From positions 1-20,122 of IMG/VR virus record IMGVR_UViG_2671181054_000001: a stretch of DNA of 20,122 nucleotides, one strand, 5' to 3'. The DNA comes from a virus (Duplodnaviria; Heunggongvirae; Uroviricota; Caudoviricetes). The translations under genes and the position numbers were made by a program. Under the pieces are notes generated by a model. It did no database searches, was not told the DNA's origin, and was given only the letters and a program-made list of their open reading frames with translations. Positions within the stretch are counted from its first letter, which is position 1. Each line of letters opens with the position of its first letter. Below are positions 3,496 to 20,122 of the stretch, piece by piece.

Positions 3496-3523
3496 ACATA
3501 AAAAACCCGCTCAATGGCGGGTT
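3496..3523 (-). terminator. Rho-independent terminator (minus strand) 85 nt downstream of Q stop; tR'-like
   Basis: Minus-strand RNA AACCCGC-CAUUGA-GCGGGUU followed by UUUAUG; 7-bp stem. Confidence 0.55.
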
Positions 3524-3606
3524 GTATCAAAGTTCATGCGCTTGGTTCACCTCGCGATACAGCTTTGCGAAGCTTAGCAAAATTGAAGCGGTTTATGCGT
3601 AAAAAA

Positions 3607-4149: not shown

Positions 4150-4436
4150 AAATAACCTTCCTTTCTCCAGATTTCTTGCGTGCGAAAAACACCTTCTGCA
4201 TGCATCAGGCGTAATTCTTCTTTGGTGTAATCGCTTGTTTTTACCCGCCAGTCGATTAGATCGTGGCATGAGCTACAGGCTATCGCCGCCTGCATATCGT
4301 GTGGTTTTGTCGCTGTTCCGCACGTCCCCGCCAGCCTGTAATGCGCCAGCACAGAGGTTTCGGGATTGTGATTGCAGTAGCCAGGGATTCTGATCTGGCA
4401 CATCTGGCCTTTAGCCGCTTTACGTAAATTCACCAT
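4146..4436 (-). CDS. DUF1364-family nin-region protein (YbcO-like), Cys-rich putative metal-binding nuclease
   Basis: 96 aa; resembles DLP12 YbcO (LRKAA.G..CQ.RIPG.CN.NPETSVLAH.RL.G.CGT.TKP...A.IACS.CH) as recalled; TAATG overlap with upstream gene. Confidence 0.6.
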   Translation of the reverse strand: MVNLRKAAKGQMCQIRIPGYCNHNPETSVLAHYRLAGTCGTATKPHDMQAAIACSSCHDLIDWRVKTSDYTKEELRLMHAEGVFRTQEIWRKEGYL

Positions 4437-5035
4437 TACGCAAACTCCAGTAGTTGTGCGGCCACATTTACAACTTCCTCCTGAGAGGAGAATTTACGGA
4501 ACAGAATCCAGTTCCACAGCATATTCAGTACAGATTTATAAACCTGCTGAAACTCGACTTCGTCCATATTCGCAAACGCGATGGATTTCGCCCGACGCCC
4601 ACGGCTACCATCAGGATAAAAATGCTCTGTGTAAAATCCGGCCTGAATGGTTACCCACTCGCGGAAAGCCTCAAACGACTTTAGCAATGCCGTATCCCGG
4701 GTTCTGCGTGTCGCAACGGTATTCAGATATTGCTCTGCGGCACCACTCAGGGCTGGAGTATGTTCCCGACCTACTGATTCGCACAGGTAATCAACGAAGC
4801 CTGATACCAGTTCTCGTTCTCGAGGCGTGATCGCCCCACCGATCGGAGTCCAGTAATCGAATCCCAGTTGCAGGAGTTTGAAAAAACGCTTGTGGAATGC
4901 ATAGTTACGCACACGCTTAAAGTCTGCGTGTATCCACTCGCCTATTTTGATTTGATGCAGAAAATCGCAACTCTCCGGCGTCGCCGGGAGAAGTAAACCA
5001 GAAGAAGTTTGTTTGACCAGTTGTATATGCGCCAT
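4436..5035 (-). CDS. Phage nin-region protein, possibly DUF1367 family (199 aa)
   Basis: ORF with GGAGA SD 6 nt upstream of ATG; syntenic with YbcO-like gene. DUF assignment is from memory and uncertain. Confidence 0.5.
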   Translation of the reverse strand: MAHIQLVKQTSSGLLLPATPESCDFLHQIKIGEWIHADFKRVRNYAFHKRFFKLLQLGFDYWTPIGGAITPRERELVSGFVDYLCESVGREHTPALSGAAEQYLNTVATRRTRDTALLKSFEAFREWVTIQAGFYTEHFYPDGSRGRRAKSIAFANMDEVEFQQVYKSVLNMLWNWILFRKFSSQEEVVNVAAQLLEFA

Positions 5036-5106
5036 CGTAGTTCTCCGCTGGCGCAGTAGAATGGGTGTTCAGCCCGTTGTGCAGTATACCAGAATTAATA
5101 CCAATA

Positions 5107-5358
5107 CTAACAGGATGCTCTGACTCGCAATTCATCCAGCAGTTTATCATTTCCCATAATGTCACTTAACCTCATCGGTAAAAAAATTGCCTTTCGCCCA
5201 TTACGATACATCATTGATTTTTGGTTTTCAGGGAAGTAATCCATTTCGACTATAACTGACAGGTCATCACGACGTATGACTGCGTATTTGCTACTAAATA
5301 GTTTCTTTATTTTTTCCACGATGCCTCCAAGTTTATAAGTACAAGAGGTTATATCCAC
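5107..5358 (-). CDS. Hypothetical small protein (70-83 aa; start uncertain, possible GTG start with GGAGG)
   Basis: ORF in moderately AT-rich DNA at edge of the island; no family recognised; ATG at 5358 lacks an SD, internal GTG is preceded by GGAGG. Confidence 0.35.
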   Translation of the reverse strand: MDITSCTYKLGGIVEKIKKLFSSKYAVIRRDDLSVIVEMDYFPENQKSMMYRNGRKAIFLPMRLSDIMGNDKLLDELRVRASC

Positions 5359-6207
5359 ATAGAGACAAAAATATTAATCTTAAAAATATTTATTTCACGC
5401 CGTATATTTGTTTGTTTTATGCGCAGGCACAATGACTTTTATTTATTGTTATGCATATAATCAAATAAGTGATTGTTTTTTGCTCTTCAGATTCAGCAGG
5501 CAAAATGCATAAGGGCTGAAAGTGCTCGCATATAATACCTAATTTACTATCACTATATTCTAAGCACTTACCAGGTGATTAGGAACGGAACCCAGTACCG
5601 TGCGAATTTTAATTATGTGCTGGGACCAAACGGTCTGAAATGTCTTCATTGGTGACGATGATTACTCTTACTTTTTGATTTTAATATTCCGGCAATAATT
5701 TTAATAAAAATCTGTTTTAACTCTGCATTTTGCTGATTCTCCGAAGAAACTATCCATCTCTACGAGGAGATCAAATGTCGTTTCAAATCAGTATGTTGAG
5801 TATAAAAATCATGCCATAAATAGAAAACTAATTCGTCTGTATAGCAGTAATATTTCTGAAAATTAGTAGGATACTGTGGTAAAGAAATTCATTTCCAAGT
5901 AATTGGTAAACGCATTTGATTTGATTTTTTGTATGGGCTGTACTGGCTAAATAACATCCGATACTTGCCAGCACTAGCGATTGCTATTGATGAGAACAAT
6001 AGTGGCATCCGGCAAAGCATTTTGTAGGGGGGGTATCAAGCGGTGCTAACGCATTGCGGTAAAAATTCTGTCACACTTGGCGAGCAGGCATAGAGATGAT
6101 CTCATTGAATTGGTTGCAATCACAAAACACTATGCCTGCCTTTTCTATTCGCCCATTGCTGGGGAGTCCACAGCACTACTGCAGCTTTTTAGTACGATGA
6201 ACAGCTA

Positions 6208-8190
6208 TTAAGTAATTTCAGAGGTATCTATCACTTTCTCAGGAGTTGTAGATAACAATTCTTTCATACGCTGATCTTCGGGAGCACGAGAAGACAGGTG
6301 TTCTAAAAACTCACGCCATTGACGCTTTGCATCAGACAGAAGGTCATCCCAAGTTAATGTATACATTTCTTGTTCTCTCAATGTTTTCAGTTTCATATTT
6401 AACGTTGCATTTCTCTTTAAAAAATCATCAGCAACTAGATAACCGGAAACTCGCTTGAATGGACTTCCTGTTGCAGAGTCTAAATAAACTCTGAAAGTAT
6501 TAACATACTCCTCAAAGCGATTGATGTGATCTTTATCTATTTTCAGCCCTGGCCTCATGAATTCAAGTACAAGCAAATGTTCACCACTTGAAAGAACTAA
6601 GTCAACCCTTCCTTTAAAGCTTGGATCGTGTTCAATGTCTGATTCTTTTGCTGCTTCTCTAGCGATATGCTGGACATTTTTCTCAATAGCATAAGTCTCC
6701 CATTTTGGAGCTATCAGCCAAGGATTCTTCGCAATATAGTCTCGAACAGCATTTTCTAATTCTTTAGTGCGTATTCTAGTCTCAAGACCACTTATAGTAT
6801 CAAGCTTAGCTTTAACTGATTCTGCTGTGTGTAAAGCCTGAATTGTATTTGCTTCGATCAATATCTCAAGCAATTTCGTTTCATCCATATCAGGAACGGA
6901 AGCAACGCTTCTTATAAGCTCTTTTAGACGCCCTCCCTCCCATGCAGTGAGGATAGAGTTGCCTATATGCCTAAATTGCTCTGCACCGATTTGTTGGATT
7001 GATGCAATTCGTTTCAAAGCCATTATAACCGTTTTTTTCTCTACACCTAGTTTATCTAGCCTACTTCTGAAATCATCAATTTTACTTTCAATCAGTTTGG
7101 TTTTTTCATCTGCCCGCCGATCTTTCCAGATTTTTAATAATTCGCGAACACGTTTCTGTCCCCACTCTTCTAATTTGGCAAGGTGGTGACTACTCCAATT
7201 CAATCTTTGTCGTTCAGTAGAAATCACATCATCATTAAACTCATCCAAATAATCAGCAATTACAGCCCCTGTCATATATTCAGGACCATTTTGACTTGGC
7301 AACCCTCCAGTCAAGTTAAACATAAACGGCCTTTGTGCTAATTTTTTGTGAGCGTAAATCGAGATACCTTGCAACTCATCATCCTTGATTGTTTCTTTTA
7401 AGAAAAACACTCTCCATTTTATCTCATAACCATCAACGATTTCTTTTCCATACCCCAAACTGTCAATCTCCGTAAGAGAATCAGGTTTTTCATCTACAGT
7501 ATAATCTTTTGGAAAACTATATTCTGCAGTGGCAAGAAAATTTTCGACTGGCATGGGGGTATTATTAATACGAACTAAAAATTCATCGCCGCCAGAATTG
7601 ATCGCAAACCTTCTCGCCATAGATGTAGCAAAAGAAGACTCATTTAACAATCTATTTATTTTCAATGACTTAAGTGTTACTGTTGTTCCATGATTTTCTT
7701 TTTCTAATTCTGAAGGGCCTGTGCGGAAGGTCACATCAATAGCCATACTTTCAGTTTTAACGTAGTCATCTGACGATCTAATCTTATTTATATCCAAAGT
7801 AAAACTAGTTTTTTCACCTGTTTCTTGGCTAGTAGTACAAATTTCTATAATCTCAGCAATACCAAAACCAGCAAACTTTCCGATACCTTTTCTTCCCATT
7901 AAGTCTCGATTGAATAATTTCGACTTCGCTACAGGATTATCTTTCCTTTTATCAAAACCAACCGTAAGAAATTTCTTTTGACATTCTTCAAATGTCATTC
8001 CAATACCATTGTCTTTTATAACAATAGTTCTATTTTCATGCGTGGGTAGTGTAATATTAACTTCGGTTGCATCCGCGTCCCAAGCATTAGAAACCATTTC
8101 AGCTATTGCTGCTGTTGGACTTTGATACATTTGAATACCTAAATGATCAATTATCCTACCATGAAAATTTAGAAATAGTTTATTATCCAT
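6208..8190 (-). CDS. GHKL (Bergerat-fold) ATPase-domain protein, 660 aa, MORC/MutL-like N-terminus with uncharacterised C-terminal region; candidate restriction/defence effector
   Basis: N-terminal motifs AIAEMVSNAWDADATEV (N-box, E-x3-N-A-x-D), IKDNGIGMT (D-x-G-x-G), GRKGIGKFAGFG (G-rich lid). Start ATG has GAGG 6 nt upstream and overlaps the MTase stop by 8 nt. Confidence 0.85.
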   Translation of the reverse strand: MDNKLFLNFHGRIIDHLGIQMYQSPTAAIAEMVSNAWDADATEVNITLPTHENRTIVIKDNGIGMTFEECQKKFLTVGFDKRKDNPVAKSKLFNRDLMGRKGIGKFAGFGIAEIIEICTTSQETGEKTSFTLDINKIRSSDDYVKTESMAIDVTFRTGPSELEKENHGTTVTLKSLKINRLLNESSFATSMARRFAINSGGDEFLVRINNTPMPVENFLATAEYSFPKDYTVDEKPDSLTEIDSLGYGKEIVDGYEIKWRVFFLKETIKDDELQGISIYAHKKLAQRPFMFNLTGGLPSQNGPEYMTGAVIADYLDEFNDDVISTERQRLNWSSHHLAKLEEWGQKRVRELLKIWKDRRADEKTKLIESKIDDFRSRLDKLGVEKKTVIMALKRIASIQQIGAEQFRHIGNSILTAWEGGRLKELIRSVASVPDMDETKLLEILIEANTIQALHTAESVKAKLDTISGLETRIRTKELENAVRDYIAKNPWLIAPKWETYAIEKNVQHIAREAAKESDIEHDPSFKGRVDLVLSSGEHLLVLEFMRPGLKIDKDHINRFEEYVNTFRVYLDSATGSPFKRVSGYLVADDFLKRNATLNMKLKTLREQEMYTLTWDDLLSDAKRQWREFLEHLSSRAPEDQRMKELLSTTPEKVIDTSEIT

Positions 8191-9232
8191 AATCCGCCTC
8201 GTTTTTAGTTATATGTTCTTTGATAAGTTCAGCATGACGCTTAATGAATTCAGGGGGCAATGCATTCCCTATCATCAAAGCAGCCTTGTCTTTACCAAAT
8301 TGAATAGGAAAATAGTAATCACTCGGAAAAGTTTGTAATAATGCAGCCTCTCGAAGAGTTATTGCTCTATCTTGTTCAGGATGTAAAAAACGACCTTTTG
8401 AAGGATTAGTACATCCACTCGTAATAGTTGGAGCTACATCATCCCACCTCATACGACCGTAAACATCGCGAAAACCATTTGGATATCGTTTATGACATGG
8501 CAGCCAATACTCGTAAGGAAGTTGAGAGCGGCTTCCCCCATCCTTAGGAATAAGACTTATAATTTTTTTAACCTTCTCAGTTCTTCTTTCTAATATATTG
8601 TGCAGCGGATCATTGCTATTTTCAGGTCGAGCCAAATGGCCTATTGCATCGCGCACAGTTATTAAATTACTATTTTTTTGAGCACGAGTAAGCTCTCCGT
8701 ATCGCGAAGCAAGTAGTACCATGCGCTTACGTCTTTGTGGCACACCAAATTTACTAGCATCTTCAATTAAAACTGAATTATCATCGATATGATAACCCAA
8801 TTTCTTAAGCTCCGAAGTAAACATGTTTATTCGTTCGTCAAATGCCAAAGCTGGTACATTTTCAACCATTACAACTTTTGGAAAAAAGACTTTAACAAAA
8901 TCTAAAAAATTAAAAATAAGTTCATTTCTCTCATCAAAGACAGCTACTGTTTTATTTTTTGTTCTTAACGAAGAAAATCCTTGACATGGTGGACAACCTG
9001 CCAACAAATCCAGTTCACCTTGCTGAATTTTTAATTGTTTCATTAATTCATCTGGTGATATATTTTTTATATCCCCATTTATTAAGTTAACATCCGGATG
9101 GTTGATTCTATAGGTTTCAGATACAATAGCTTCTTTTTCGATTGCTGATATGACATCAAAGCCAGCCATTTTTAGACCAACTGTCAAACCACCAGCGCCA
9201 CAAAAAAGATCAATTGCTTTCATTTTATGCAT
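8183..9232 (-). CDS. DNA (cytosine-5)-methyltransferase, Dcm-type (349 aa)
   Basis: Canonical m5C MTase motifs: I DLFCGAGG, IV GCPPCQGFS, VI MVENVPAL, VIII QRRKR, X GNALPP. Start could be M1 (9232) or M4 (9223). Confidence 0.9.
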   Translation of the reverse strand: MHKMKAIDLFCGAGGLTVGLKMAGFDVISAIEKEAIVSETYRINHPDVNLINGDIKNISPDELMKQLKIQQGELDLLAGCPPCQGFSSLRTKNKTVAVFDERNELIFNFLDFVKVFFPKVVMVENVPALAFDERINMFTSELKKLGYHIDDNSVLIEDASKFGVPQRRKRMVLLASRYGELTRAQKNSNLITVRDAIGHLARPENSNDPLHNILERRTEKVKKIISLIPKDGGSRSQLPYEYWLPCHKRYPNGFRDVYGRMRWDDVAPTITSGCTNPSKGRFLHPEQDRAITLREAALLQTFPSDYYFPIQFGKDKAALMIGNALPPEFIKRHAELIKEHITKNEADYG

Positions 9233-9268
9233 TCCATTCCATCATGTATACTATGAATCTAATCGAGA

Positions 9269-9297
9269 ATCATATGAAATTGATAGGCTTTTTACAA
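9269..9297 (-). promoter_or_regulatory. Candidate sigma70 promoter for MTase-GHKL operon
   Basis: Minus strand TTGTAA - 17 bp - TATGAT, about 35 nt upstream of the MTase start codon. Confidence 0.3.
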
Positions 9298-9625
9298 TCT
9301 TTATCATCTATTTTTATTGTCTTATGTAATTTTCTTGGTTATTGGTGGAATGTAATCTCATCTGATATCCTATGTCCTAATAGATAGCAATTCTGTATGA
9401 GCTTTTATTGCCCTCATCAGACGCTTCCTTTATGAAGTTGTTCCGAGCAATGCAGCATCGCATTTATCACTTCTTTTATGTGGCTTATGTGTCACGGCGT
9501 TGTTGCCATCAAGGCCAGCGAACATTCCGTGCCTGTCAAACGCCGTGCAAAGCTCGTTAAACGCCCACGTCCGAACTTCGGCAAGGAAGGCATTGGCGCG
9601 GTCAACTCCTGGTAGCCAATCCTGC

Positions 9626-10048
9626 TCACTGCGCCGCCCCCTGAAAATGCCCCTGATAGAATGCCAGCACACGCTGCATAACTTCGCTCTTCCGGCACTC
9701 GCGACAGATTATGTTCATACGCCTGTCATAGCGGCGTATTTCTCCGTCTGGTAATGACCAGATAAGGTCAGGATCAACCACAACCGTTTTTTTCACCTTT
9801 GCCCTGGATAGTTTTTTGCGGGCGTTTTTCCAGTCCTTACGAGCCTGTTCAGAGGGAAATAACCCATAGCCAGAGTTGTATACATCGCCACTGGCAACCA
9901 ACTCTCTGGCAAGAATGCTCATCAGATATCTTGTCGCACCTGTCTTGGCCTCCAGTTGCCTTAACGTCTCGCGCCCACTCTGGCGTACCAGCTCAACAAC
10001 CTGCTCCTTAATTTTTTCACGCTCTTCCTGTGTAAAAACTTTTGCCAT
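9626..10048 (-). CDS. Hypothetical phage protein, possible winged-helix DNA-binding protein (140 aa)
   Basis: Start at MAKVFTQEE with GGAGG 6 nt upstream; C-terminal CRECRK motif; no confident family. Confidence 0.5.
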   Translation of the reverse strand: MAKVFTQEEREKIKEQVVELVRQSGRETLRQLEAKTGATRYLMSILARELVASGDVYNSGYGLFPSEQARKDWKNARKKLSRAKVKKTVVVDPDLIWSLPDGEIRRYDRRMNIICRECRKSEVMQRVLAFYQGHFQGAAQ

Positions 10049-10063
10049 AAGCGCCTCCGGCAA

Positions 10064-10825
10064 TCACTTTTCCGACACAATACGACAGGAGGAGTCGACA
10101 ATCTGTCGAACAATATCCCGGTACTTGTTCAGCTCCCGCAGCGCGGCGCAGACACGCTCCCACTTCTGGACATGATTTTTCGCCCGGCGCAGCTCACGGT
10201 TTGCCATGTGCAGCGATGGTAAAATCATGTCATCCGCCCGCGTTTCGGTAAACGATGGCAGCGACTGCACAATGTCCGCCACAGTTTCTGTTTTAATATC
10301 TTCCTGTGTTGCATCTTTCTGTACCGGCAACGCAACACCTGCTGGCTGAGGAAAGGCTTTAAAATCAGTTTCCGTTACCGATGCAGCTTTCGGCTCTGCT
10401 GGTAAATTATTGCCCGGTATGCAGTAACGAAATTTACCGTTCTGATTTACGCGAATCAGGCGTCCTTTGCTGATTGCCATTGCCAGCGTTGAAGCAAGTT
10501 TGCGGGATGTGGTACCGAACAGCGTAGCTAGTTCATCCGCCGTTTGTGGTCCGCGTTGTTCAATCGTCGCGGTTAAATCGCACTCTGAGATTTTCGCTAC
10601 TGTTGCCGTGGTGGTTTCTTCCGGCAGTTCTGCCTGCATTGGCTGTTCCTGCTGAACGTTGTTATCAGCCACACGCCAGGTGTACGCGCTTTTATCAACG
10701 AAACCAGCTTTTTTCAGTTCCCATAGTTCGTTCAGCACTTCTTCACGACTGATATCAAGTCGCGCAGCAAGTTCTATGGATGTGGCTTTTCCCATTGCTT
10801 TCAGTGCGTCAAAAACAGTCTCCAT
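10064..10825 (-). CDS. Phage protein with N-terminal winged-helix-like domain (DUF1627-like, YdaW-like), about 254 aa
   Basis: Start at METVFDALK with GGGAGGA 8 nt upstream; position after DnaC-like gene as in Rac ydaV-ydaW. Family from memory. Confidence 0.5.
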
Positions 10826-10847
10826 TAAAATTTCCTCCCGATAAAAA

Positions 10848-11594
10848 TTACTTCGCAGTTCCTGGCTGGACGACATTCGGACGCCAGCTCTCCCAGTTAA
10901 AATTCACCCATCGCCCGCCGTTCATGGTCATGCGATCCATAATCCGCTCGCCGAGCAATGTTTTCATGGCCTCATAGTTCAGGTTTGTCAGCATCCCCAC
11001 GCTGCGCATCGACGCTGTCCGGCGATCAACAATCTGGTGCAGTACCACCTGCTCGTTTTTTGTCTCGCGCTGAATGCCAATTTCATCAAGAACCAGCAGA
11101 TCCACTTCGCACAGTTCCCGCAAAAATTTTTCGCCTGATTGCCCGTCGTCATAGCTGGCGTGTAGAGCACTCATGACATCAGCCACAGTAACCACAATCA
11201 CTGTCTGGCCATCTTTCAGCAGACGATTCCCGATAGCCGCCGCCAGATGGTTTTTTCCGGTACCAGGTTTTCCGCTGAACGCAAAATTTGTACACCCGGT
11301 CATCAGTTCATCAGCGATAGATTTCGCCTGGCTCAACGCGTATCGCTGACCGTCGTTCTGCACCTGGTAATTCGCAAACGAGCATTTACGGTGCAACGGC
11401 TGGATGCCTGAGCGATTCAGAATTTTTTCCACCCGCAACTGGCGATTCAGGCGGTTGATCTCCTCGCTACGTTTCTGGCCTTCAGCAAGTTGCCACTCGC
11501 GCCACTCCGCTACCGTTCTGAATGGGGCGGTTACATGTGGCGGGGTCAGTCGGCGGATGCGTTCCAGAACGCCGCCTGTCGCAATATTTTTCAT
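10848..11594 (-). CDS. DnaC/IstB-like AAA+ helicase loader (replication protein, YdaV-like)
   Basis: Walker [16 protein letters not shown] and Walker [10 protein letters not shown]; 248 aa. Confidence 0.85.
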
Positions 11595-11600
11595 GGTTCG

Positions 11601-12389
11601 TTACCCCCTGAAGCCTGGCGGGATCGCACTGTCCGGCAACGAGACGGTGTTAACCTGTCTGAGCAACGTCTCAGGCCTAACACCTTTCGGCGCGAACAAG
11701 CCCTGGTATTCATTGGCGATGCTATGTCGAATCACCTGCTCAGGGGTAAAACCCTGCTGGCGGAATTTTTCCAGTTCCCGTATCGCCCCGTTAGCGCCCT
11801 GCTCCGTTCGAATCGGTTTTCGCAATGCCTGCCTGAACCGGACCCACTCATGCCAGAGTGTTTCCGGCAACCAATCGGGCAACTCAATAGCCTCCGGCTC
11901 GAATTTTTTAGATGCTCGTTTTTGGCGAGGGGGATTTAGGGGGAGATCAGTATTTATATCTTCCTCTTCCTCTTCCTCTGGTAACGCTTTTTGATCCGTT
12001 TGTGTAACGCTGGCAGCGTTACCTTTTCGTTTCAGTTTGCGTATTTTTGTAACCCTCTCGTTTGTAATCGCCCGTTTTTTAGAGCTTTTTCCGTTATGAC
12101 GTTCAAAGTTAGGTAGAGAAAGCCCACCGTTATTTTCGACCAGCCATCCAACCTGAATTAACGCATCAGCAAAACCAGCCATAAAAGTGATGCGATCTAT
12201 TGCACTTTTTGTAACGCCGCGAGCGTTACACTCTGCGTTACCGTCTATCATTTGTTGATCCGCCCATGCCCAGAAGCGAATGACTTTCCCTAATGCGGCA
12301 TCTGGATCAATATTCAGAATCTCAGCAAGCCTGAATATTTCCGGCTTATCCGGCGTAATAACCTCGAGCTTTATCCAGTTTGAAGCCAT
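11601..12389 (-). CDS. Replication initiation-module protein (YdaU/DUF1376-like), about 262 aa, with poly-Glu linker
   Basis: Start at MASNWIKLEV with GGTGA 7 nt upstream; directly precedes DnaC-like loader; contains internal palindromic repeats. Confidence 0.55.
   Translation of the reverse strand: MASNWIKLEVITPDKPEIFRLAEILNIDPDAALGKVIRFWAWADQQMIDGNAECNARGVTKSAIDRITFMAGFADALIQVGWLVENNGGLSLPNFERHNGKSSKKRAITNERVTKIRKLKRKGNAASVTQTDQKALPEEEEEEDINTDLPLNPPRQKRASKKFEPEAIELPDWLPETLWHEWVRFRQALRKPIRTEQGANGAIRELEKFRQQGFTPEQVIRHSIANEYQGLFAPKGVRPETLLRQVNTVSLPDSAIPPGFRG
12004..12022. repeat. 19-bp palindrome GTAACGC-N5-GCGTTAC, copy 1 (inside replication gene)
   Basis: gtaacgc tggca gcgttac; exact 7-bp arms. 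Confidence 0.8.
12211..12229. repeat. 19-bp palindrome GTAACGC-N5-GCGTTAC, copy 2 (inside replication gene), followed by an extra GCGTTAC at 12235-12241
   Basis: gtaacgc cgcga gcgttac; exact 7-bp arms. Confidence 0.8.
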
Positions 12390-12403
12390 ATTGTTTTCAC
12401 CTT

Positions 12404-12422
12404 GTAACGCTGTAAGCGTTAC
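12404..12422. repeat. 19-bp palindrome GTAACGC-N5-GCGTTAC, copy 3 (intergenic, overlapping RBS region of replication gene)
   Basis: gtaacgc tgtaa gcgttac; exact 7-bp arms. Confidence 0.8.
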
Positions 12423-12467
12423 ATTTAACTGATACCGAACAAAACAGTCCGGCACGATTAATTTCAA

Positions 12468-12890
12468 TCAATGCACTACGACAGAATCGCCGGGCGACCC
12501 ACCGCCGCTGAAATATGCTTTACGGTAAACGGCCTGGACTGCATCATCATGCGCATCAATTGCCGTACTCAACGCTTCCTGCGCCGCCAGTAATGCACGG
12601 CGTTCCAGGGTATCGAAGATGCAGAGTCGGTGACGCAGCTCGCGCGGAAGAATTGCCAGAACCGCAGGGATCAGTTTCTGAATTTTTTCCCTTTGCGCTT
12701 TCGTTTCACCTTTCAACCAACGGTGATAGATATTCTGCTGATTGTTCCAGTCCTTGCCTGGTACCAGGGGCAATTCGCCGCCCCCCTGGCGCAGATATTC
12801 TTCAGTAATTGCGTTAGCAACCCACGCCTGCCCTTTTTCGGCTGCTAGGGCTAACAACACTGATTCGATGTGCTCATGCCTGATTTTCAT
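12468..12890 (-). CDS. YdaT-like (CII-like) early regulatory protein, 140 aa
   Basis: Second gene of the rightward early operon, ATGA-coupled to the Cro-like gene; size matches Rac YdaT as recalled. Confidence 0.55.
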   Translation of the reverse strand: MKIRHEHIESVLLALAAEKGQAWVANAITEEYLRQGGGELPLVPGKDWNNQQNIYHRWLKGETKAQREKIQKLIPAVLAILPRELRHRLCIFDTLERRALLAAQEALSTAIDAHDDAVQAVYRKAYFSGGGSPGDSVVVH

Positions 12891-13129
12891 GAATCAACCG
12901 CTCCTATGCTGTTTTCGCTATGCTTACCGTCTGGGGGGAATACATCGTCAAGTCCACAATGAGCACCAAGCCGATTAAGGGTGGAAACAATTTTTCTGCA
13001 CTCCTCTAGCCCAGGGGTACGAAAATTTGCTTCGTAATTTGCCAGTCGGCTTTGTATCCACCCTAGCTGAACAGCGAGTTGTCTTTGAGACAGACCAAGT
13101 TGTTTTCGATATGTTGAAATTTTGTTCAT
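12887..13129 (-). CDS. Cro/YdaS-like HTH (XRE-family) early regulator, 80 aa
   Basis: HTH LGLSQRQLAVQLGWIQSRLANYE; GGAGG 6 nt upstream of ATG; divergent from repressor gene. Confidence 0.7.
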   Translation of the reverse strand: MNKISTYRKQLGLSQRQLAVQLGWIQSRLANYEANFRTPGLEECRKIVSTLNRLGAHCGLDDVFPPDGKHSENSIGAVDS

Positions 13130-13225
13130 TAAAAACCTCCGACGACAATTTTAAACACACCTTGTGTTTTACGGTCAAGCTATTTTGTGTTTTATATAAA
13201 TCACGATTCGTGATACAAGGACGAA
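13130..13225. promoter_or_regulatory. Divergent promoter/operator region between Cro-like and repressor genes
   Basis: Palindrome AAACACA-cct-TGTGTTT at 13153-13169; 10-bp direct repeat TTGTGTTTTA at 13162-13171 and 13185-13194; palindrome ATCACGA-T-TCGTGAT at 13200-13214; minus-strand promoter candidate TTGACC - 17 bp - TTTAAA. Confidence 0.6.
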
Positions 13226-13645
13226 ATGGAAAAAGAAAACGAAAAAATTGCCGCTAGTAGGCTCAATGACAAAATTGCAATGCGTCTTAAAGAGCGCAGG
13301 CAGAAGCTTGGTTTATCTCAAGGAAAACTTGCTGAAATCTGCGGATGGACGCAATCGCGTATAGGTAACTATGAGGCGGGCAGCAGAAATGTTGGAGTGC
13401 ATGATGCTGTCGTCCTGGGAAAGGCGCTGGGCATATCTCCTCCTGAGCTCCTCTTTGGGGAAAAAGACTCTTCTGAATTGTGGTTAAATGAATCCCAACG
13501 AAAACTTCTTGAGTTGTTTAACCAGCTACCGGGCTCAGAACAACAACGAATGATTGAGCTATTTGAAGTCCGGCTAAAAGAAATCGACGAGTATGTAGAA
13601 AAATATTTGAGGGGCAGGCTTAAAGATACCCCCCCACCGGAGTAA
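13226..13645 (+). CDS. CI/RacR-like XRE-family HTH repressor without peptidase S24 domain (139 aa)
   Basis: HTH LGLSQGKLAEICGWTQSRIGNYEAG; AAGGA RBS; divergent from cro-like gene; followed by a strong terminator. Confidence 0.75.
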   Translation: MEKENEKIAASRLNDKIAMRLKERRQKLGLSQGKLAEICGWTQSRIGNYEAGSRNVGVHDAVVLGKALGISPPELLFGEKDSSELWLNESQRKLLELFNQLPGSEQQRMIELFEVRLKEIDEYVEKYLRGRLKDTPPPE

Positions 13646-13675
13646 TGATCTTGCTATCACAGTAATATGCCAATC

Positions 13676-13700
13676 AGCCCGCTATCAGCGGGTTTTTTTT
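13676..13700 (+). terminator. Rho-independent terminator after repressor gene
   Basis: cccgc-tatca-gcggg stem followed by T8. Confidence 0.7.
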
Positions 13701-13730
13701 GTACCATCATCATATGACACGCCACCATAA

Positions 13731-13773
13731 AAACACACTTTGTGTTGACTTACAAAAACCATTTGTGTTTAAT
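13731..13773 (+). promoter_or_regulatory. pL-like promoter with overlapping operator for the leftward early operon
   Basis: Palindrome AAACACA-ctt-TGTGTTg at 13731-13747; TTGACT (13745-13750) - 17 bp - TTTAAT (13768-13773); half-site TTGTGTTTAA overlaps the -10. Confidence 0.4.
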
Positions 13774-13947
13774 AAGCATATCCAAACAACGCCCCACCGG
13801 AGAACGGCAGGACAATACCTCGAGTTATCCAGCCACTGAACAGGGCTAAGTAGCCAGCCTGAGGCATACGAACATGACGGCAGTTGTTGATTGATACAAA
13901 GCGCAGTAGATAAAACGTTCCGCCACCCGGCGTTAAGGGGAAAAAAG

Positions 13948-14082
13948 ATGGTGCATTACGAAGTAGTTCAGTATTTGATGGATTGTTGCGGTATCACTTA
14001 CAGCCAGGCTGTGCAGGCTTTACGTAGCAACGACTGGGATCTCTGGCAAGCAGAAGCCTCTATCCGCAACAACAAGATGTGA
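13948..14082 (+). CDS. Small early protein, 44 aa (YdaG-like by size and position)
   Basis: ATG at 13948 preceded by AAGGGG; first gene downstream of pL-like promoter. Confidence 0.4.
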   Translation: MVHYEVVQYLMDCCGITYSQAVQALRSNDWDLWQAEASIRNNKM

Positions 14083-14092
14083 GGTGCGAAAA

Positions 14093-14362
14093 ATGCAAAA
14101 AATCGACCTCGGCAATAACGAATCCATGGTGTGCGGCGTGTTCCCCAACCAAGATGGAACGTTCACTGCTATGACGTATACCAAAAGCAAAACGTTTAAC
14201 GTCGCTGGCTGGAAAGAAATTCAGGTGAGTGATATGGATTTCGACGCAATCATGAAAAAGGCTTACGAAGAATACTTCGAAGGCCTTGCCGAAGGCGAAG
14301 AAGCTCTCAGCTTCGGTGAGTTTAAACAGGCGCTTTCCAGTTCGACAAAATCTATCGACTAA
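14093..14362 (+). CDS. Hypothetical acidic early protein, 89 aa
   Basis: ATG at 14093 preceded by GAGGTG; tightly follows the preceding gene. Confidence 0.5.
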   Translation: MQKIDLGNNESMVCGVFPNQDGTFTAMTYTKSKTFNVAGWKEIQVSDMDFDAIMKKAYEEYFEGLAEGEEALSFGEFKQALSSSTKSID

Positions 14363-14532: not shown

Positions 14533-14689
14533 CGGCTTGTTTTTCTTCTTTTAATATATTGCGAATTGTAATAACTGAATTAGCCGCCTCTGAAGGGGAT
14601 GACATTTTGCCAGCCCGAATTAACTCAACTGTTAAGTTCAAAGCTGCAACAGATGGATAGGTAAATGGGTTAATTAACTTGTCTGACAT
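14504..14689 (-). CDS. Hypothetical small protein, 61 aa, convergent to early operon
   Basis: Start at MSDKLINPF with GGAGG 5 nt upstream. Confidence 0.4.
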   Translation of the reverse strand: MSDKLINPFTYPSVAALNLTVELIRAGKMSSPSEAANSVITIRNILKEEKQAAMEKTDKEQ

Positions 14690-15256
14690 TTTATCCTCCA
14701 TTGAGGTTCTGGGTTAAAAATGGAGACCAACACGCTGCCACATGTGGTCGTGCGCCGGACACGGATAAGAATCCGGCACTGACAGTTTACTGAAAGGATA
14801 TATCCCTGAAAAGTCAGGGCATAACGCGAAAGCGCACGGCGAAGTTCGTCTCACTGTACGGTGTCGTTAAATTTAATTCGACCGTGCGCTTCCGGTTGTG
14901 GCACTCCGCGAAATGGCGCGGCGGTACGTATGGCGGGGTTATTCCTTCCCCCTGTTGAGGACACCGGGTTGTCAGGTTGACCATACGCCTGAGTGACAAC
15001 CCCGCTGCAACAACCCATGTTGATTACCTTTTGGCGGCATCAGTTTCATTGCTGGCTGATGTCCGTCCTTTTTAAAGTGAATTTTGTGATGCGGTGAATG
15101 CGGCTCAGCGCACGCGGAACAGTTAAAAAGGCCAGTTGACTTCCGTATTGGTTCTTATGGGTGGGTTCTCTGTATCCGGCGTTAATTGTTAACTGGTTAA
15201 CGTCACCTGGAGGCACCAGGCACTGCATCACAAAATTCATTGTTGAGGACGCGATA

Positions 15257-15445
15257 ATGGAAACATTATTACCAAACGTTAATACGTCTGAAGGTTGTTT
15301 TGAAATTGGTGTCAGTATCAGTAACCCTGCATTTACTGAAGATGCCATTAATAAGAGAAAACACGAACGGGAGTTATTAAATCAAATATGCATTGTTTCA
15401 ATGCTGGCCCGTTTACGTCTGATGCAAAAAGGATACTGGCAATGA
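15257..15445 (+). CDS. Hypothetical small protein, 62 aa
   Basis: ATG with GAGGA 7 nt upstream; ATGA-coupled to next gene. Confidence 0.4.
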   Translation: METLLPNVNTSEGCFEIGVSISNPAFTEDAINKRKHERELLNQICIVSMLARLRLMQKGYWQ

Positions 15446-15633
15446 ATACAGCATTCGCACTCGTTCTGACAGTTTTTCTTAATACAGGCGAACCACTTGA
15501 CCTTATTGTTGATATACGTGACTCAATGGAAGAATGCATGGCTGCCGCAGATGAACAGAAAATTCCCGGTAACTGTTATCCGGTCGATAAAGTTATTCGC
15601 ATGAATAATAACGAAGTCCCGGCAGGGCTTTAA
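15442..15633 (+). CDS. Hypothetical small protein with N-terminal hydrophobic (signal/TM-like) segment, 63 aa
   Basis: MNTAFALVLTVFLNTG hydrophobic start; AAGGA upstream; two Cys in acidic C-terminal part. Confidence 0.4.
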   Translation: MNTAFALVLTVFLNTGEPLDLIVDIRDSMEECMAAADEQKIPGNCYPVDKVIRMNNNEVPAGL

Positions 15634-15724
15634 ACCAGCACAGTAATAAATATCCGGTTTCATTTTTATATGCCAGCAATGGGCAGGGATTTGTTCACCC
15701 TAAAAATGGTTATGAGGTTTATCA

Positions 15725-18160
15725 ATGAGCACTGATAAAGAAGAAATTGCACTATATTACGAAGCCAAAAATGACAAAGTCAGAAAACGTCTTGGGATTA
15801 AAGGCGGTTTTTACTGGCGCACAGCAAAAAAATTATCGGTTGCAATATCACGCGGTGTTGTCGCAATGGACGATGCCGGATTTGACGAAGAGGATTTTAA
15901 AAAACCTGTTCGCGTCCATTTACCCGTTGTGAATGACCTTCCTCCGGAAGGCGTGTTTGATATCGAATTCTGCAACCGATACGAAAAAGGCGGGGAAGAT
16001 GGTATCACAATGGTACTTATCGCGCCCTCGCCCTCTGTTCAGGATAAACCAGCCAGCACTGACAATACCAACGTCAACGGCGAAGACCTGGCTGAGATTG
16101 AGGAGAACATGCTCCTGCCGGTTTCAGGTCAGATTCTGCCTGTTCGATGGCTGGCACAGCACGGCAGCGAAAAACCGATCACACACGTTTCGCGGGACGA
16201 ACTGCGCGCATTACATAACGCACAGGATGAAAAACTTCCCGCCGTTACCGCGCTGGCTATCTCAAATAAAGCAGCGCAACTCGAACCGCTGGAGATTCGC
16301 GATCTCCACAAACTGGTGCGAGACACTGACAAAGTTTTCCCCGCCCCCGTAAATTCGGACCTGGGACTGATAACCTCTTTTATCGAAGCATACCTGGACG
16401 CCGACTACACCGATCGCGGTCTGCTGACAAAAGAGTGGATGAAAGGAAATCGTGTTTCGCGTATCACCCGTACGGCTTCCGGTGCAAATGCCGGTGGCGG
16501 GAACAAAACCGATCGCAATCCGAATTTAGTACACACCTTCGATACGCTGGATGTGGAGATTGCAGCAGCCACACTTCCGATGGATTTTAATATTTATGAA
16601 ATTCCGGGCAGCGTTTATCGTCGCGCAAAAGAAATCGTCCTGAAAAGAGAAAGTCCGTTCAAAGAATGGTCCGCAGCACTTCGCGCAACCCCGGGTATTC
16701 TGGATTATTCCCGCGCCGCTATTTTTGCACTTATCCGGAGCACTCACCCTGAGTTTTATCACTACCCGGGACGCCTTCAGGGGTATATCAACGCCCACTT
16801 AACGGAGACTGATCACGAGAACCCCAGCAAGGAAACTCTCACTGCTGCACGACATACACCGGAAAAAGACATCCTGGAAGAAGTTAACCGCGAACTGGCT
16901 GCTGAACGCGAAACAGAAGAAGAAAAAAATAATGAGGAAAAATCACAACCGTCTGACGCAATGGCAGATGAACAGGCAACGACTGAAGCAATGGGACAGG
17001 ATACAACTGAATATCGCCAGGACACACAATCGCTGGATACTCAGGCACAGATAAATCCGGTTAATCAGGTAAAAGTTACCGCTGACGAAGTAAACAAAAT
17101 TATGCAGGCAGCCAATATCAACCAGCCTGATGCCGACAAAATACTGGCAGTCCATCGCGGTGAATTCGTTGACGGAATTAGCGACCCGAATGATCCGAAA
17201 TGGGTTAAGGGGATTGAAACCCGCAATTCTGTGAACCAGAACCAGCCCGAATCGGAACAAAACAGCCAAAATGCGTTACAAAACGAGCCAGAAACGAAAC
17301 AGCCTGAACCAGAAGAGCAACAAGAACCGGAAAAAGTCTGCACCGCCTGCGGTCAGACCGGCGGCGACAACTGTCCTGACTGTGGCGCGGTGATGGGCGA
17401 CGCAACATACCAGGAAACATTCGATGAAAAAAATCAGGCTGAAGTTCAGGAAGATGATCCGGAGGAAATGGAAGGCGCTGAACATCCACACAAGGAGAAC
17501 ACTGGCGGCAATCAGCATCACAATAGCGATAATGAAACTGGCGAGACGGCAGATCACTCAATTAAGGTGAACGGTCATCACGAAATCACATCCACCAGCA
17601 GGACGTGTGACCATCTAATGATCGACCTTGAAACCATGGGAAAAAATCCTGATGCCCCGATCATCTCAATAGGTGCAATATTTTTCGATCCGCAAACCGG
17701 AGATATGGGACCGGAATTTAGTAAGACTATCGATCTGGAAACTGCTGGCGGAGTCATTGATCGGGACACCATTAAATGGTGGCTTAAGCAATCACGCGAA
17801 GCGCAATCTGCCATTATGACCGATGAAATCCCGTTAGATGATGCACTACTGCAATTGCGGGAATTTATCGACGAAAACTCCGGTGAATTTTTTGTTCAGG
17901 TCTGGGGTAATGGGGCCAACTTCGACAACGTGATTTTACGCCGTTCATACGAACGACAGGGTATCCCCTGCCCGTGGCGCTACTGCAACGATCGCGATGT
18001 ACGCACAATCGTTGAGCTGGGGAAAGCCATAGACTTCGATGCCAGAACTGCTATCCCATTCGAAGGTGAGCGCCATAATGCACTTGATGACGCTCGTTAC
18101 CAGGCAAAATACGTTTCAGCTATCTGGCAAAAACTGATCCCGAGTCAGGCTGATTTTTAA
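15725..18160 (+). CDS. RecE-like (exonuclease VIII-like) large prophage protein whose C-terminal domain is a DEDDh (DnaQ-like) 3'-5' exonuclease fold; 811 aa
   Basis: N-terminal and middle regions resemble Rac RecE as I recall it (NTNVNGED..EIEENMLLP..RWLAQHGSEKP..THVSRD; GLLTKEWMKGNRVS.ITRTASGANAGGGN; Cys4 ribbon CTACGQTGGDNCPDCG). C-terminus has Exo I DLETMG, Exo II GNGANFD, Exo III HNALDDA. Confidence 0.7.
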   Translation: MSTDKEEIALYYEAKNDKVRKRLGIKGGFYWRTAKKLSVAISRGVVAMDDAGFDEEDFKKPVRVHLPVVNDLPPEGVFDIEFCNRYEKGGEDGITMVLIAPSPSVQDKPASTDNTNVNGEDLAEIEENMLLPVSGQILPVRWLAQHGSEKPITHVSRDELRALHNAQDEKLPAVTALAISNKAAQLEPLEIRDLHKLVRDTDKVFPAPVNSDLGLITSFIEAYLDADYTDRGLLTKEWMKGNRVSRITRTASGANAGGGNKTDRNPNLVHTFDTLDVEIAAATLPMDFNIYEIPGSVYRRAKEIVLKRESPFKEWSAALRATPGILDYSRAAIFALIRSTHPEFYHYPGRLQGYINAHLTETDHENPSKETLTAARHTPEKDILEEVNRELAAERETEEEKNNEEKSQPSDAMADEQATTEAMGQDTTEYRQDTQSLDTQAQINPVNQVKVTADEVNKIMQAANINQPDADKILAVHRGEFVDGISDPNDPKWVKGIETRNSVNQNQPESEQNSQNALQNEPETKQPEPEEQQEPEKVCTACGQTGGDNCPDCGAVMGDATYQETFDEKNQAEVQEDDPEEMEGAEHPHKENTGGNQHHNSDNETGETADHSIKVNGHHEITSTSRTCDHLMIDLETMGKNPDAPIISIGAIFFDPQTGDMGPEFSKTIDLETAGGVIDRDTIKWWLKQSREAQSAIMTDEIPLDDALLQLREFIDENSGEFFVQVWGNGANFDNVILRRSYERQGIPCPWRYCNDRDVRTIVELGKAIDFDARTAIPFEGERHNALDDARYQAKYVSAIWQKLIPSQADF

Positions 18161-18221
18161 TGTTCAACCGTCGCCAGTTGTCGTTGGTATTCTGCAACTG
18201 GCGCGTTCCGGAGTGATAGCC

Positions 18222-18491
18222 ATGAGCGAACAGTACCTGATAACGCTCGATGAGTGGAAGCCAAAACGGTTCAGTCTCCCAATAACAAACACTACCCTGG
18301 TGAAATACGGAAAACTAGGATACATCGTTCCAAGACCACAAAAAATTCGTGGGCGTTGGCTGATAGATCGCCGAGCAGTATTTGTTGGACCTGGTGAAAC
18401 AGGAATTGCGCCGGAAATTCATACTGGCGATGATGATGCACTGAAGGAGATTTTAACTCATGTCACCGAGGCCACGAAAAAACAGCACTGA
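18222..18491 (+). CDS. xis: Excisionase-like protein (Xis), about 89 aa
   Basis: Small basic ORF immediately upstream of and overlapping integrase by 32 nt; GGAG 8 nt upstream of ATG. Call is positional. Confidence 0.5.
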   Translation: MSEQYLITLDEWKPKRFSLPITNTTLVKYGKLGYIVPRPQKIRGRWLIDRRAVFVGPGETGIAPEIHTGDDDALKEILTHVTEATKKQH

Positions 18492-19578
18492 CGTAGCCGG
18501 ACTTTACGAAAAATTTGATCGCAGAACTGGCAGAGTTTACTACCAGTATAAAAACCCTGTGACTGGAAAATTTCACGGGCTCGGAACAGACAAAGGTAAG
18601 GCAGAAAAAATCGCTTCCACAGCCAATCAGCGAATAGCTGCAGCAGAGGCTGAATATTTCATGCGCAAAATTGATGAAAGTCCGTCAGCAACAAAGCGTC
18701 GGGGTATCAGATTAAAGGCATGGGTTGATCGATATCTGAAAATACAGGACACGCGACTGAAAAATGGAGATATTGCAGCTACAACTCACAAAGAAAAAGC
18801 CCGAATGGCTGCATACCTGGTTTCCCGTCTGGGAAACCACCCATTGAAAGAACTGGAAGTAAGAGACTTTGCATTAATACTGGATGAGTGGCTGGATAAA
18901 GACATGGTCAGCACAGCGAGAGTAAATCGTGGATTATGGGTTGATATTTATAAAGAAGCACAGCATGCAGGGGAAGTTCCTCCTGGATGGAATCCTCCGG
19001 AGGCTACCCGTAAACCGATCCCTAAAGTAACTAGAGCCAGGCTCACCCTGGAAGACTGGCAAAAAATTTACAACGCAACGCCTGAAAAACACTTTATCCG
19101 TAACGCAATGCTTCTTGCGATTGTTACTGGTCAGCGCCGTGATGACATTTGCCACATGCGTTTTTCAGATGTGTGGAACGAACACTTGCATATCACCCAG
19201 GGAAAAACCGGAATGCGTCTGGCGTTACCGCTTACACTACGCTGTGATGCCATTGGGATAACGTTAAAAGAAGTTATTGATGGGTGCCGAGACAGAATAT
19301 TAAGTCCATATCTAATCCATAGTCGGCACCAGAAACAACCAAAGCCGATGAGTAAAGACAACCTGAGCGACTACTTTGCCAAAGCACGGGATCTGGCTGG
19401 GATAACTCCACCAGCAGGAAAAACTCCGCCAACATTTCATGAACAACGCTCCCTGTCAGAACGATTGTACCGCGCGCAGGGTATTGATACAAAAACATTA
19501 CTGGGACATAAAGTCCAGGCAACCACCGATCGTTATAACGATACTCGTGGTCAGGAATGGGTTAAATTGGTTGTTTGA
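18460..19578 (+). CDS. int: Lambda-family tyrosine integrase, 372 aa
   Basis: N-terminal arm-binding region resembles lambda Int (RDPRTGKEFGLG-like: YKNPVTGKFHGLG); C-terminal catalytic H-x-x-R (HEQRSL) and Tyr motif (TTDRYNDTRGQEW, cf. lambda ASQYRDDRGREW). Confidence 0.9.
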   Translation: MSPRPRKNSTDVAGLYEKFDRRTGRVYYQYKNPVTGKFHGLGTDKGKAEKIASTANQRIAAAEAEYFMRKIDESPSATKRRGIRLKAWVDRYLKIQDTRLKNGDIAATTHKEKARMAAYLVSRLGNHPLKELEVRDFALILDEWLDKDMVSTARVNRGLWVDIYKEAQHAGEVPPGWNPPEATRKPIPKVTRARLTLEDWQKIYNATPEKHFIRNAMLLAIVTGQRRDDICHMRFSDVWNEHLHITQGKTGMRLALPLTLRCDAIGITLKEVIDGCRDRILSPYLIHSRHQKQPKPMSKDNLSDYFAKARDLAGITPPAGKTPPTFHEQRSLSERLYRAQGIDTKTLLGHKVQATTDRYNDTRGQEWVKLVV

Positions 19579-19623
19579 CGAAATAAATACAGCTGAAAAA
19601 TGTTGATATTGCTTTGCTAGTGT

Positions 19624-19646
19624 AAAAACCCCGGCATCAACCGGGG
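19624..19646 (-). terminator. Rho-independent terminator for the minus-strand gene at window end
   Basis: CCCCGG-catcaa-CCGGGG stem with T5 following on the minus strand. Confidence 0.5.
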
Positions 19647-19654
19647 TTCGGAGA

Positions 19655-20122
19655 CTAATCTTGATCAGGTTCCTGCTTAGAATAATGTTTTCCAACAATA
19701 AATGCCGTAACCAATGCAACAAGATCTATTGAAACGAGAGTTCCGGCAAGAACTGTCTCCCCCATGACGCCAAAGACAGTGGCAGCTAAGATGATCAATA
19801 TTGCCAACCAAAAAGCCTTTGTTTGACCATCTCTGGCAATATCAATGCTATCAGCCACTGTTTTATGGCGATGAGCCTGCTCTTTTTCGGTCAACTCAAC
19901 AAGTCGATTTGCAAGCCCAGGCACCAGTTGATCATACTTTTTAAGCATTGAAGGTGGCGGAACAGGCCCCTGAAAATGCTGGCAAACAATAGCCCGCACC
20001 TGCGGACTATCCAAAACCCTGTTTAAGACCTCTGGATTTTCGATTACTCGAGAAACCAGTTCATTATCCTTTTGTTCTTCACAAGTGAGTTTGGTGTTCT
20101 CACTTTCTTTTTGATCTGGCAT
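19655..20122 (-). CDS. Membrane protein with two C-terminal TM helices (possibly DUF2335-like); N-terminus may extend beyond the window
   Basis: ORF begins exactly at window edge; hydrophobic helices AFWLAILIILAATVFGVMG and LAGTLVSIDLVALVTAFIVG; lies outside the integrase, so may be flanking host or other element DNA. Confidence 0.45.
   Translation of the reverse strand: MPDQKESENTKLTCEEQKDNELVSRVIENPEVLNRVLDSPQVRAIVCQHFQGPVPPPSMLKKYDQLVPGLANRLVELTEKEQAHRHKTVADSIDIARDGQTKAFWLAILIILAATVFGVMGETVLAGTLVSIDLVALVTAFIVGKHYSKQEPDQD

Follow-up and report, generated by a model that had tools for sequence, protein, structure and literature searches.

The gene described here lies at positions 15725-18160 on the plus strand of a 20,122-nt stretch of Caudoviricetes DNA (IMG/VR record IMGVR_UViG_2671181054_000001; we call the whole of this stretch the window) and encodes a chimeric exonuclease of 811 amino acids. 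It is complete, a single intact open reading frame (ORF) of 811 codons with an ATG start, exactly as delimited in an earlier annotation of the locus (hereafter the sequence-only reading). A Pfam scan of the window protein returned two domains, PF06630 (Exonuc_VIII; residues 56-189, E 8e-28, 98 bits against a cutoff of 25) and PF16473 (residues 630-801). The exoVIII equivalog model NF007259 of NCBIfam aligned with residues 1-613 only, which correspond to model positions 1-602 of 877, and scored 893 bits, under its 1269-bit cutoff, so that the protein does not qualify as a full-length equivalog. We took as reference the 866-aa RecE of a Rac-type prophage (L002, 19518-22115) that carries recE, recT, ralR, rcbA, xisR and intR. 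BLASTP aligned residues 58-613 of the window protein to RecE 50-591 at 56% identity, bearing out the earlier proposal that the first 600 or so residues are RecE-like, and gave no alignment past residue 613 of the one and 591 of the other. RecE itself carries PF06630 and, at residues 615-850, the PD-(D/E)xK domain PF12684; unlike in RecE, the Pfam scan found no match to this domain in the window protein. At the DNA level, the final segment near the junction that blastn aligned between the window and L002 is 16912-17555 (75% identity), which makes position 17555 (+; around residue 610-613) the last base with detectable homology to recE. Since the protein alignment ends at residue 613 and PF12684 occupies RecE 615-850, the swap junction lies in the linker just ahead of the RecE nuclease. 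The PD-(D/E)xK 5'-3' nuclease head of RecE has been replaced, at this linker, by a DEDDh domain.

The product is a modular phage early protein in which an acidic linker of ~250 residues joins a RecE-type scaffold of ~375 residues to a catalytically complete DEDDh domain. The ratio of nonsynonymous to synonymous substitution rates, computed against two homologues, was 0.11-0.32 in every region, scaffold and linker included, and the whole protein is therefore under purifying selection. Both kinds of component were already known; what is new is a DexA-family exonuclease riding on the RecE scaffold.

The DEDDh domain (residues 630-801; 17612-18127, +) matches PF16473, the DexA/EcD/Rv2179c family (Rv2179c-like in Pfam), over model positions 2-177 of 177 (E 1.7e-67, 227 bits against a cutoff of 27). 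Its three exonuclease motifs are DLETMG (motif I, residues 634-639; 17624-17641, +), GNGANFD (motif II, residues 728-734; 17906-17926, +) and HNALDDA (motif III, residues 784-790; 18074-18094, +), which together supply the complete DEDDh set (DxE, the motif II Asp and Hx4D) as D634, E636, D734, H784 and D789. In an alignment of 25 homologues, with identities down to 58%, these five residues are invariant or at least 90% conserved. The sequence-only reading had called the motifs DnaQ-type rather than PD-(D/E)xK and had named an alignment of the C-terminus with the canonical RecE nuclease as the result that would overturn this view; the motifs fall within the profile match and no such alignment was obtained.

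An AlphaFold2 model of residues 615-811 (mean predicted local distance difference test score, pLDDT, 85.6) has a predicted fold of the DnaQ/RNase T type. In a Foldseek search of the PDB its top match was T4 DexA (8kel; E 6e-12, template modelling score 0.72), followed by RNase T, a DnaQ domain and the oligoribonucleases Orn and REXO2. A phmmer search of the PDB likewise gave DexA as the sole significant match (E 2.5e-7); at E <= 10 it returned, besides DexA, just chance-level RNA polymerase matches. For comparison with EcD (HAK9828821.1) we used a 189-aa E. coli prophage protein whose start fits the EcD forward primer, whose 3' end fits the reverse primer bar one extra A, and which carries Ala78; that it is EcD is something we infer from these features and do not prove. 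The window domain is 38% identical to this EcD-like protein (E 1e-36), and the PF16473 scores of the window domain, the EcD-like protein and DexA are 227, 168 and 79.9 bits respectively. The head is thus a confident member of the DexA/EcD/Rv2179c family, and its fold predicts a 3'-5' polarity, opposite to that of RecE.

The scaffold (residues 1-375; 15725-16849, +) is delimited by the BLASTP alignment to RecE, by PF06630 and by its conservation, in alignments A2 and A3, among fused proteins from many enterobacterial genera. It comprises a small alpha/beta domain (residues ~1-86) and a helical region (~130-375), the latter with a nearly invariant Gly-rich motif, RTASGANAGGGNKTDRN (residues 249-265; 16469-16519, +), whose invariant columns in A3 are G253, A256, G257-G259, N260, T262, D263, R264 and N265. 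The AlphaFold2 model of residues 1-400, built from 16 sequences, is of moderate confidence (pLDDT 61.5; ~80 for residues 1-86, 70-84 for 130-250 and lower elsewhere), and Foldseek found nothing under E = 1 for it in the PDB, hence no functional lead. According to a 2023 review, the function of the N-terminal domain of RecE is unknown and full-length RecE improves linear-linear recombination (PMC11611040).

The linker (residues 376-625; 16850-17599, +) aligns to that of RecE and is of low complexity, with 23% D+E, 8% K+R and 42% Q/N/S/T/P/G; it looks disordered. A conserved short motif within it, RGEFVDGISDPNDPKWVKG (residues 478-496; 17156-17212, +), was recognised by BLASTP to RecE and in A3, where the consensus reads '...ERGExVxGISDPxDPKWV', and is common, as GISDPNDPKWVKG, to RecE and the Klebsiella homologues. 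Further along lies a Cys4 ribbon with a GDATY tail, CTACGQTGGDNCPDCGAVMGDATY (residues 539-562; 17339-17410, +), its Cys pairs being CTAC (539-542) and CPDC (550-553); the Pfam family DZR matches it weakly (E 0.072). The sequence-only reading had given this ribbon prominence. It is present, but it is not distinctive: it is the RecE ribbon save for one substitution (T540 for Asn), and it was not seen in any fused protein examined outside Escherichia, which makes it a part inherited with the RecE scaffold and nothing special to the window protein. A ribbon of identical type, with the GDATY tail, also ends the Dam-like methyltransferase that adjoins the EcD-like gene in P2-like prophages, so that the ribbon appears to be a portable module.

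No annealase accompanies the exonuclease. In the window, tblastn with RecT, lambda Bet, Exo and Gam and P22 Erf, Abc1 and Abc2 gave no match, a Pfam scan of 23 ORFs, every long one included, found no annealase family, and the recT, ralR and rcbA of the Rac-type locus are missing. We then surveyed homologues at one genome per species, which returned 80 loci. Among the 10-kb neighbourhoods of these loci, tblastn with RecT, the RecE nuclease, Bet/Exo/Gam and Erf/Abc gave two matches, the RecE control and a locus (L042) where a single Erf gene stands directly upstream of a standalone copy of the homologue. The fused-form loci have no RecT, Bet or Erf within 10 kb, remote families (Rad52-like, Sak4) not having been profile-searched across the loci. 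The earlier statement that xis follows directly with no recT-like annealase therefore stands, and its suggestion to look for recT in related prophages gives the same answer. Its observation is borne out in every part, well above what chance would produce, and its structural interpretation is sound. In the RecET and Red systems the 5'-3' exonuclease resects the 5' strand and thereby exposes a 3' tail for the annealase (PMC11611040). Because these systems need that tail and the DEDDh head is predicted to have the opposite polarity, the window protein cannot replace RecE; the anticipated loss of classic RecET chemistry follows from this established knowledge and from the lack of an encoded annealase.

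The RecE-type scaffold is not confined to these two heads, nor is the DEDDh head confined to this scaffold. Variants of 823 aa (L004, L006 and L114; E. albertii, E. ruysiae and phage Tritos) agree with the window protein in their RecE-type middle region, their ribbon and their DEDDh head, whereas their first ~270 residues are unrelated to it, hence a second N-terminal variant of the fusion. K-12 ydfE (L113, 6079-6999) matches these ~270 residues: the Qin pseudogene is the IS2-truncated start of the 823-aa exonuclease variant. The idea that YdfE is the remnant of exactly the window gene was rejected, as BLASTP found no similarity between it and the N-terminus of the window protein.

Searching residues 1-375 against 1.84 billion representative proteins returned 219 clusters only. 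The best 150 of these comprise at least 12 with a complete DEDDh head, 25 with the RecE nuclease, 67 short fragments and 43 long proteins with neither head. Nine of the 43 (P0367, P0425, P0427, P0428, P0431, P0458, P0481, P0506 and P0445) have in common a C-terminal domain of a third kind, ~270 residues long and marked by the motif DGEAxKKSLTDAxKKALSxLGFxADxxxGLYD. A gene for it (L115/L116, 6001-8445) fills the same prophage slot, with a Sipho_Gp157 gene and an integrase downstream of it. This third head is possibly Rad52-like, judging by a sub-threshold match of one of the nine to Rad52_Rad22 in Pfam (E 0.0024, 18.3 bits against a cutoff of 20.3); a profile search of the PDB with it returned nothing. 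Across the 43 proteins Pfam recognised PF06630, RecT in two and DUF3799 in one, and nothing else. In a 703-aa protein (P0364) the RecE ribbon runs directly into RecT sequence (...CNACGQTGGD|SALGHAYLLPFG...), which looks like a deletion fusing recE to recT. With the PD-(D/E)xK 5'-3', DEDDh 3'-5' and third heads all seen on one scaffold, this search suggests, tentatively, that the RecE N-terminal region might be a general adaptor of lambdoid prophages, fitted with interchangeable DNA-processing heads and directed to one common target (DNA ends, the replisome or a host factor). We consider this possible rather than probable; if true, the DEDDh form would handle DNA ends in lytic growth in a distinct way that involves no annealase.

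The dicA-controlled early-left operon, in a lambdoid prophage of the Qin/DicB type, has the exonuclease as its last large gene. A DicA-like helix-turn-helix (HTH) repressor (13226-13645, +; PF01381) heads the operon, with a divergent DicC-like HTH gene (12887-13129, -) beside it in the dicC/dicA order of K-12, and is followed by small genes that include a YdfA-like DUF1391 gene. Then come dicB (15257-15445, +), identified from its translation, and a ydfD-like DUF1482 gene (15442-15633, +; PF07358), both in agreement with the annotations of L001, L003, L114 and K-12 Qin, and the exonuclease. An excisionase gene (18213-18491, +; PF07825, Exc), 100% identical to the annotated excisionase of L001, begins 52 nt past the exonuclease stop codon at 18160, and a lambda-type integrase gene (18460-19578, +; PF09003 and PF00589) completes the series. 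The order on the plus strand, from the DicA-like repressor through the small genes, a DicF-like element, dicB, the YdfD-like gene and the exonuclease to xis and int, is that of the K-12 Qin dicB operon. Two phage-collection records have a matching layout. One, vB_EcoS-813R8, is partial and continues into genes of the host; the other is the complete genome of phage Tritos, whose exonuclease has the N-terminus of the YdfE type. In L001, a near-identical prophage, potC lies within 1.1 kb past the integrase, and in most enterobacterial loci the integrase starts 250-300 nt downstream of the exonuclease gene.

The DicF-like small RNA element (15018-15068, +) is weak, scoring 28.6 bits (E 9e-4) where the gathering score is 48, and there is no Rfam match to DicF at the gathering score in the operon. 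It sits where expected upstream of dicB, overlaps a terminator-like hairpin (15036-15063) and is followed by a weak STnc100 match (15066-15289). Between the exonuclease stop codon and xis, a strong hairpin built on CGCCAGTTG...CAACTGGCG (18169-18205, +; -18.9 kcal/mol, z-score -2.66 against shuffles, no T-run) might modulate read-through into xis and int. A consensus scan found no sigma-70-like promoter site directly upstream of the exonuclease gene.

The window as a whole is a mosaic of two prophage types. Positions 3502-14199 are 98.2% identical to the Rac-like prophage L002, which lies at ttcA, and positions 14678-20122 are 98.7% identical to L001, the prophage adjoining potC; the recombinant switch point falls among the small genes downstream of the repressor, between 14199 and 14678. 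In the early-right region a gene for a 660-aa ATP-binding protein (6208-8190, -), with matches to models of type II restriction enzymes (PDLC03419, E 1.2e-52), overlaps that of a Dcm-type cytosine methyltransferase (8183-9232, -; E 2.3e-81); the two are a restriction-modification pair, and the same pair is found in L002. Between a Q-like antiterminator (DUF1133, 3607-4269) and the genes for lysis lies a gene for a 298-aa AraC-family regulator (2634-3530, -), probably carried as cargo (a moron).

Far from being unusual, the exonuclease gene is common in both E. coli and Klebsiella, and it is already partly annotated. By megablast it is present at >=80% coverage in 1275 of 5426 complete E. coli genomes (~23%), and a protein search found 811-aa matches of ~100% identity in many E. 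coli assemblies, all with PF06630 and PF16473. A 712-aa fused form is abundant in Klebsiella pneumoniae, and the long fusions, of 640-830 aa, are found in Escherichia, Enterobacter, Citrobacter, Kluyvera, Klebsiella, Pluralibacter, Buttiauxella, Kosakonia, Atlantibacter, Phytobacter and others; in the 80-locus survey standalone forms of ~185-240 aa are spread more widely than the fused ones. The fused gene is also present in records of Stx2a-converting phages. E. coli copies are annotated as "exonuclease" or "3'-5' exonuclease", the latter being used by NCBI for many, while several phage records still label the gene exodeoxyribonuclease VIII, and many copies are called that or "RecE". We considered TONDO, a group of ISG20-like bacterial exonucleases (PMC13344964), as a relative and set it aside, since nothing there ties TONDO to PF16473 proteins or to RecE.

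The reading that we rank first, and hold as a whole statement with moderate confidence, is that the protein is a lytic-phase, Mg-dependent 3'-5' DNA exonuclease that trims or degrades DNA ends without RecET-type annealing. After induction or infection it would be produced alongside the other early-left products. Nucleotides would be removed from free DNA 3' ends by two-metal catalysis involving D634, E636, D734, H784 and D789, probably by a dimer, by analogy with DexA, and the scaffold would deliver the head to whatever target the RecE N-terminus recognises. Such an enzyme would destroy 3' tails rather than create them, and with no annealase at hand there would be no single-strand annealing of the RecET/Red type. 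Its most likely task would be to trim or degrade linear DNA in lytic growth, be it from the host, from a competitor or from intermediates of the phage's own recombination and replication, which host RecA and phage junction nucleases would then handle. The biochemistry of relatives agrees with this, as both DexA and EcD degrade DNA in the 3'-5' direction (PMC12153337).

Several points weigh against this proposal. The targeting role of the scaffold is an assumption, its function being unknown even in RecE (PMC11611040). The substrate could be RNA, since PF16473 is named after the exoribonuclease Rv2179c. Our literature search found no functional study of the window protein or of any fused form, and the consensus scan for promoters is a crude test that leaves expression in the lysogen possible. 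Finally, salvage, recombination trimming or exclusion could each be the biological role.

Exclusion deserves attention because EcD supplied on a plasmid protects E. coli from T4, and the enzyme digests the DNA of T4 and not unmodified DNA (Kang et al., 2025; PMC12153337). The window domain belongs to the Pfam family of the EcD-like protein, is more than a third identical to it, and is likewise carried by a prophage; the head might then serve an HREX-type superinfection defence, degrading the 5-hydroxymethylcytosine (5hmC)-type DNA of incoming T-even-like phages and protecting the lysogen. Recognition of 5hmC has been assigned to W152 and D169 of DexA, however, and the selectivity of EcD to the loss of D90, the tetramer-forming Asp of DexA that is Ala78 in EcD (PMC12153337). 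W152 aligns, in a gap-free and well-anchored stretch, to Cys754 of the window protein, the Trp being present in the EcD-like protein and in only some homologues; D169 aligns to an Ala, an assignment that an adjoining gap makes uncertain; and D90 aligns to an Asp, in a helix where the alignment is approximate. The window domain thus shows neither the W152/D169 equivalents nor the loss of the D90-type Asp, and on these alignments the head is not classifiable as an HREX-type 5hmC-specific enzyme. Nor does it match any defence family in PADLOC (PADLOC-DB 2.0, 0 families at E <= 0.01), its gene lies inside the early-left operon, which is repressed, and lacks a promoter-like site of its own, and the EcD-like gene is itself in the early region of a P2-like prophage. 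We therefore regard a defensive role of this kind as unlikely. A role in the opposite direction, suggested by the sequence-only reading, received no direct support either: as an anti-defence nuclease the protein would degrade immune nucleic acids of the host, such as the multicopy single-stranded DNA of retrons, linear or cyclic oligonucleotide signals, or the 3' ends of guides and primers. Such a role would suit a gene that a temperate phage carries in its early lytic operon, at an accessory site adjoining xis and int, and the DEDDh enzymes Orn and REXO2 are among the structural neighbours of the head. Set against this are the want of direct evidence of any kind, the PADLOC result and the repressor-controlled operon just mentioned, the fact that the closest relatives of known substrate act on long DNA, and, in our own judgement, a ~600-residue extension shared with a recombination exonuclease and unlike anything on the known small anti-defence nucleases. 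We find this more doubtful still.

It is just as doubtful, in our estimation, that the head trims the 3' ends of RNA, whether of the dicB-operon transcript, a DicF-like small RNA or host RNAs, in the manner of Rv2179c. The name of the Pfam family, the strong structural matches to RNase T and oligoribonuclease and the weak DicF-like element upstream in the operon all lend it some colour, but the head has taken the place of a DNA exonuclease on a DNA-recombination scaffold, its nearest characterised relatives (EcD-like, 38%; DexA, 23%) are DNases, and the phmmer search of the PDB gave DexA and otherwise chance-level RNA polymerase matches. A continued part in recombination seems to us the least probable of the alternatives. 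On this view the exonuclease would cut back the 3' strand and so leave 5' tails, or would trim flaps, to serve an annealase or RecA encoded elsewhere in the genome. The slot is the exo/recE position of lambdoid genomes, the RecE scaffold has been kept under purifying selection, RusA or YbcO-type junction nucleases occur in these prophages, and in L042 an Erf gene directly precedes the standalone homologue. The annealases known from phages, like RecA, load on 3' tails, though, the very ends that a DEDDh enzyme would remove, and the fused-form loci lack RecT, Bet and Erf. T4 DexA participates in intron homing (PMC12153337), which speaks for a recombination role. Taken together, we continue to prefer the trimming or degradation of DNA ends in lytic growth.

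The main value of these observations lies in correcting an annotation and in opening the function of the RecE N-terminus to experiment. The labels "exodeoxyribonuclease VIII" and "RecE" imply the wrong chemistry for this protein and mislead the mining of prophages for recombineering enzymes. A scaffold that bears at least two, and probably three, heads offers a direct handle on the ~600-residue N-terminal part of RecE, as the binding partner of the scaffold should be common to all head types.

Among known systems, the namesake of PF16473, Rv2179c of M. tuberculosis, is a chromosomal, standalone exoribonuclease that acts on RNA. The window domain matches the family model from end to end, but the phmmer search of the PDB up to E = 10 picked out DexA, its other matches being at chance level. 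A closer parallel in genome position is offered by YdfE of K-12 Qin and the 823-aa exonuclease of Tritos, which share the operon order dicB, ydfD, exonuclease, xis/int; the Tritos protein also has the RecE-type middle region, the Cys4 ribbon and a DEDDh head, and differs, with YdfE, in the ~270 residues at its start.

The only relatives that have been tested are DexA, with roles in scavenging DNA of the host and in the homing of introns, and EcD, with a reported defence against T4, both of them 3'-5' DNA exonucleases (Kang et al., 2025; PMC12153337). T4 DexA (PDB 8KEL/8KEN) is the best match among solved structures in both sequence and structure; like the window domain it is a phage-encoded member of PF16473 with the same five catalytic residues, but it is only 23% identical, stands alone at 227 aa with extra loops and no N-terminal scaffold, and its W152 and D169 positions are not conserved in the window protein. 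The EcD-like protein shares the family and a place in a prophage early region. It differs in standing alone, in its setting beside a Dam-like methyltransferase in a P2-like prophage, and in having Trp at the DexA W152 position and Ala at D90, where the window protein has Cys and Asp. We found this EcD-like/Dam-like methyltransferase locus in L110 (5187-6167, -, and 6401-6991, -) and also in L105 and L107, the EcD-like gene lying between the integrase/repressor end and the gpA-like replication gene. EcD was published as a bacterial defence protein; given that the protein matching it is found among the early genes of a P2-like prophage, what it does natively may deserve re-examination and may be a lytic function of the phage.

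The nearest counterpart of the window protein as a whole remains the RecE of Rac, with which it shares PF06630, the linker motif, the Cys4 ribbon and the early-left slot of a lambdoid prophage. RecE carries the PF12684 nuclease and is accompanied by recT, ralR and rcbA, whereas the window protein carries a DEDDh head, with an expected polarity opposite to that of RecE, and stands in an operon that has none of these genes.

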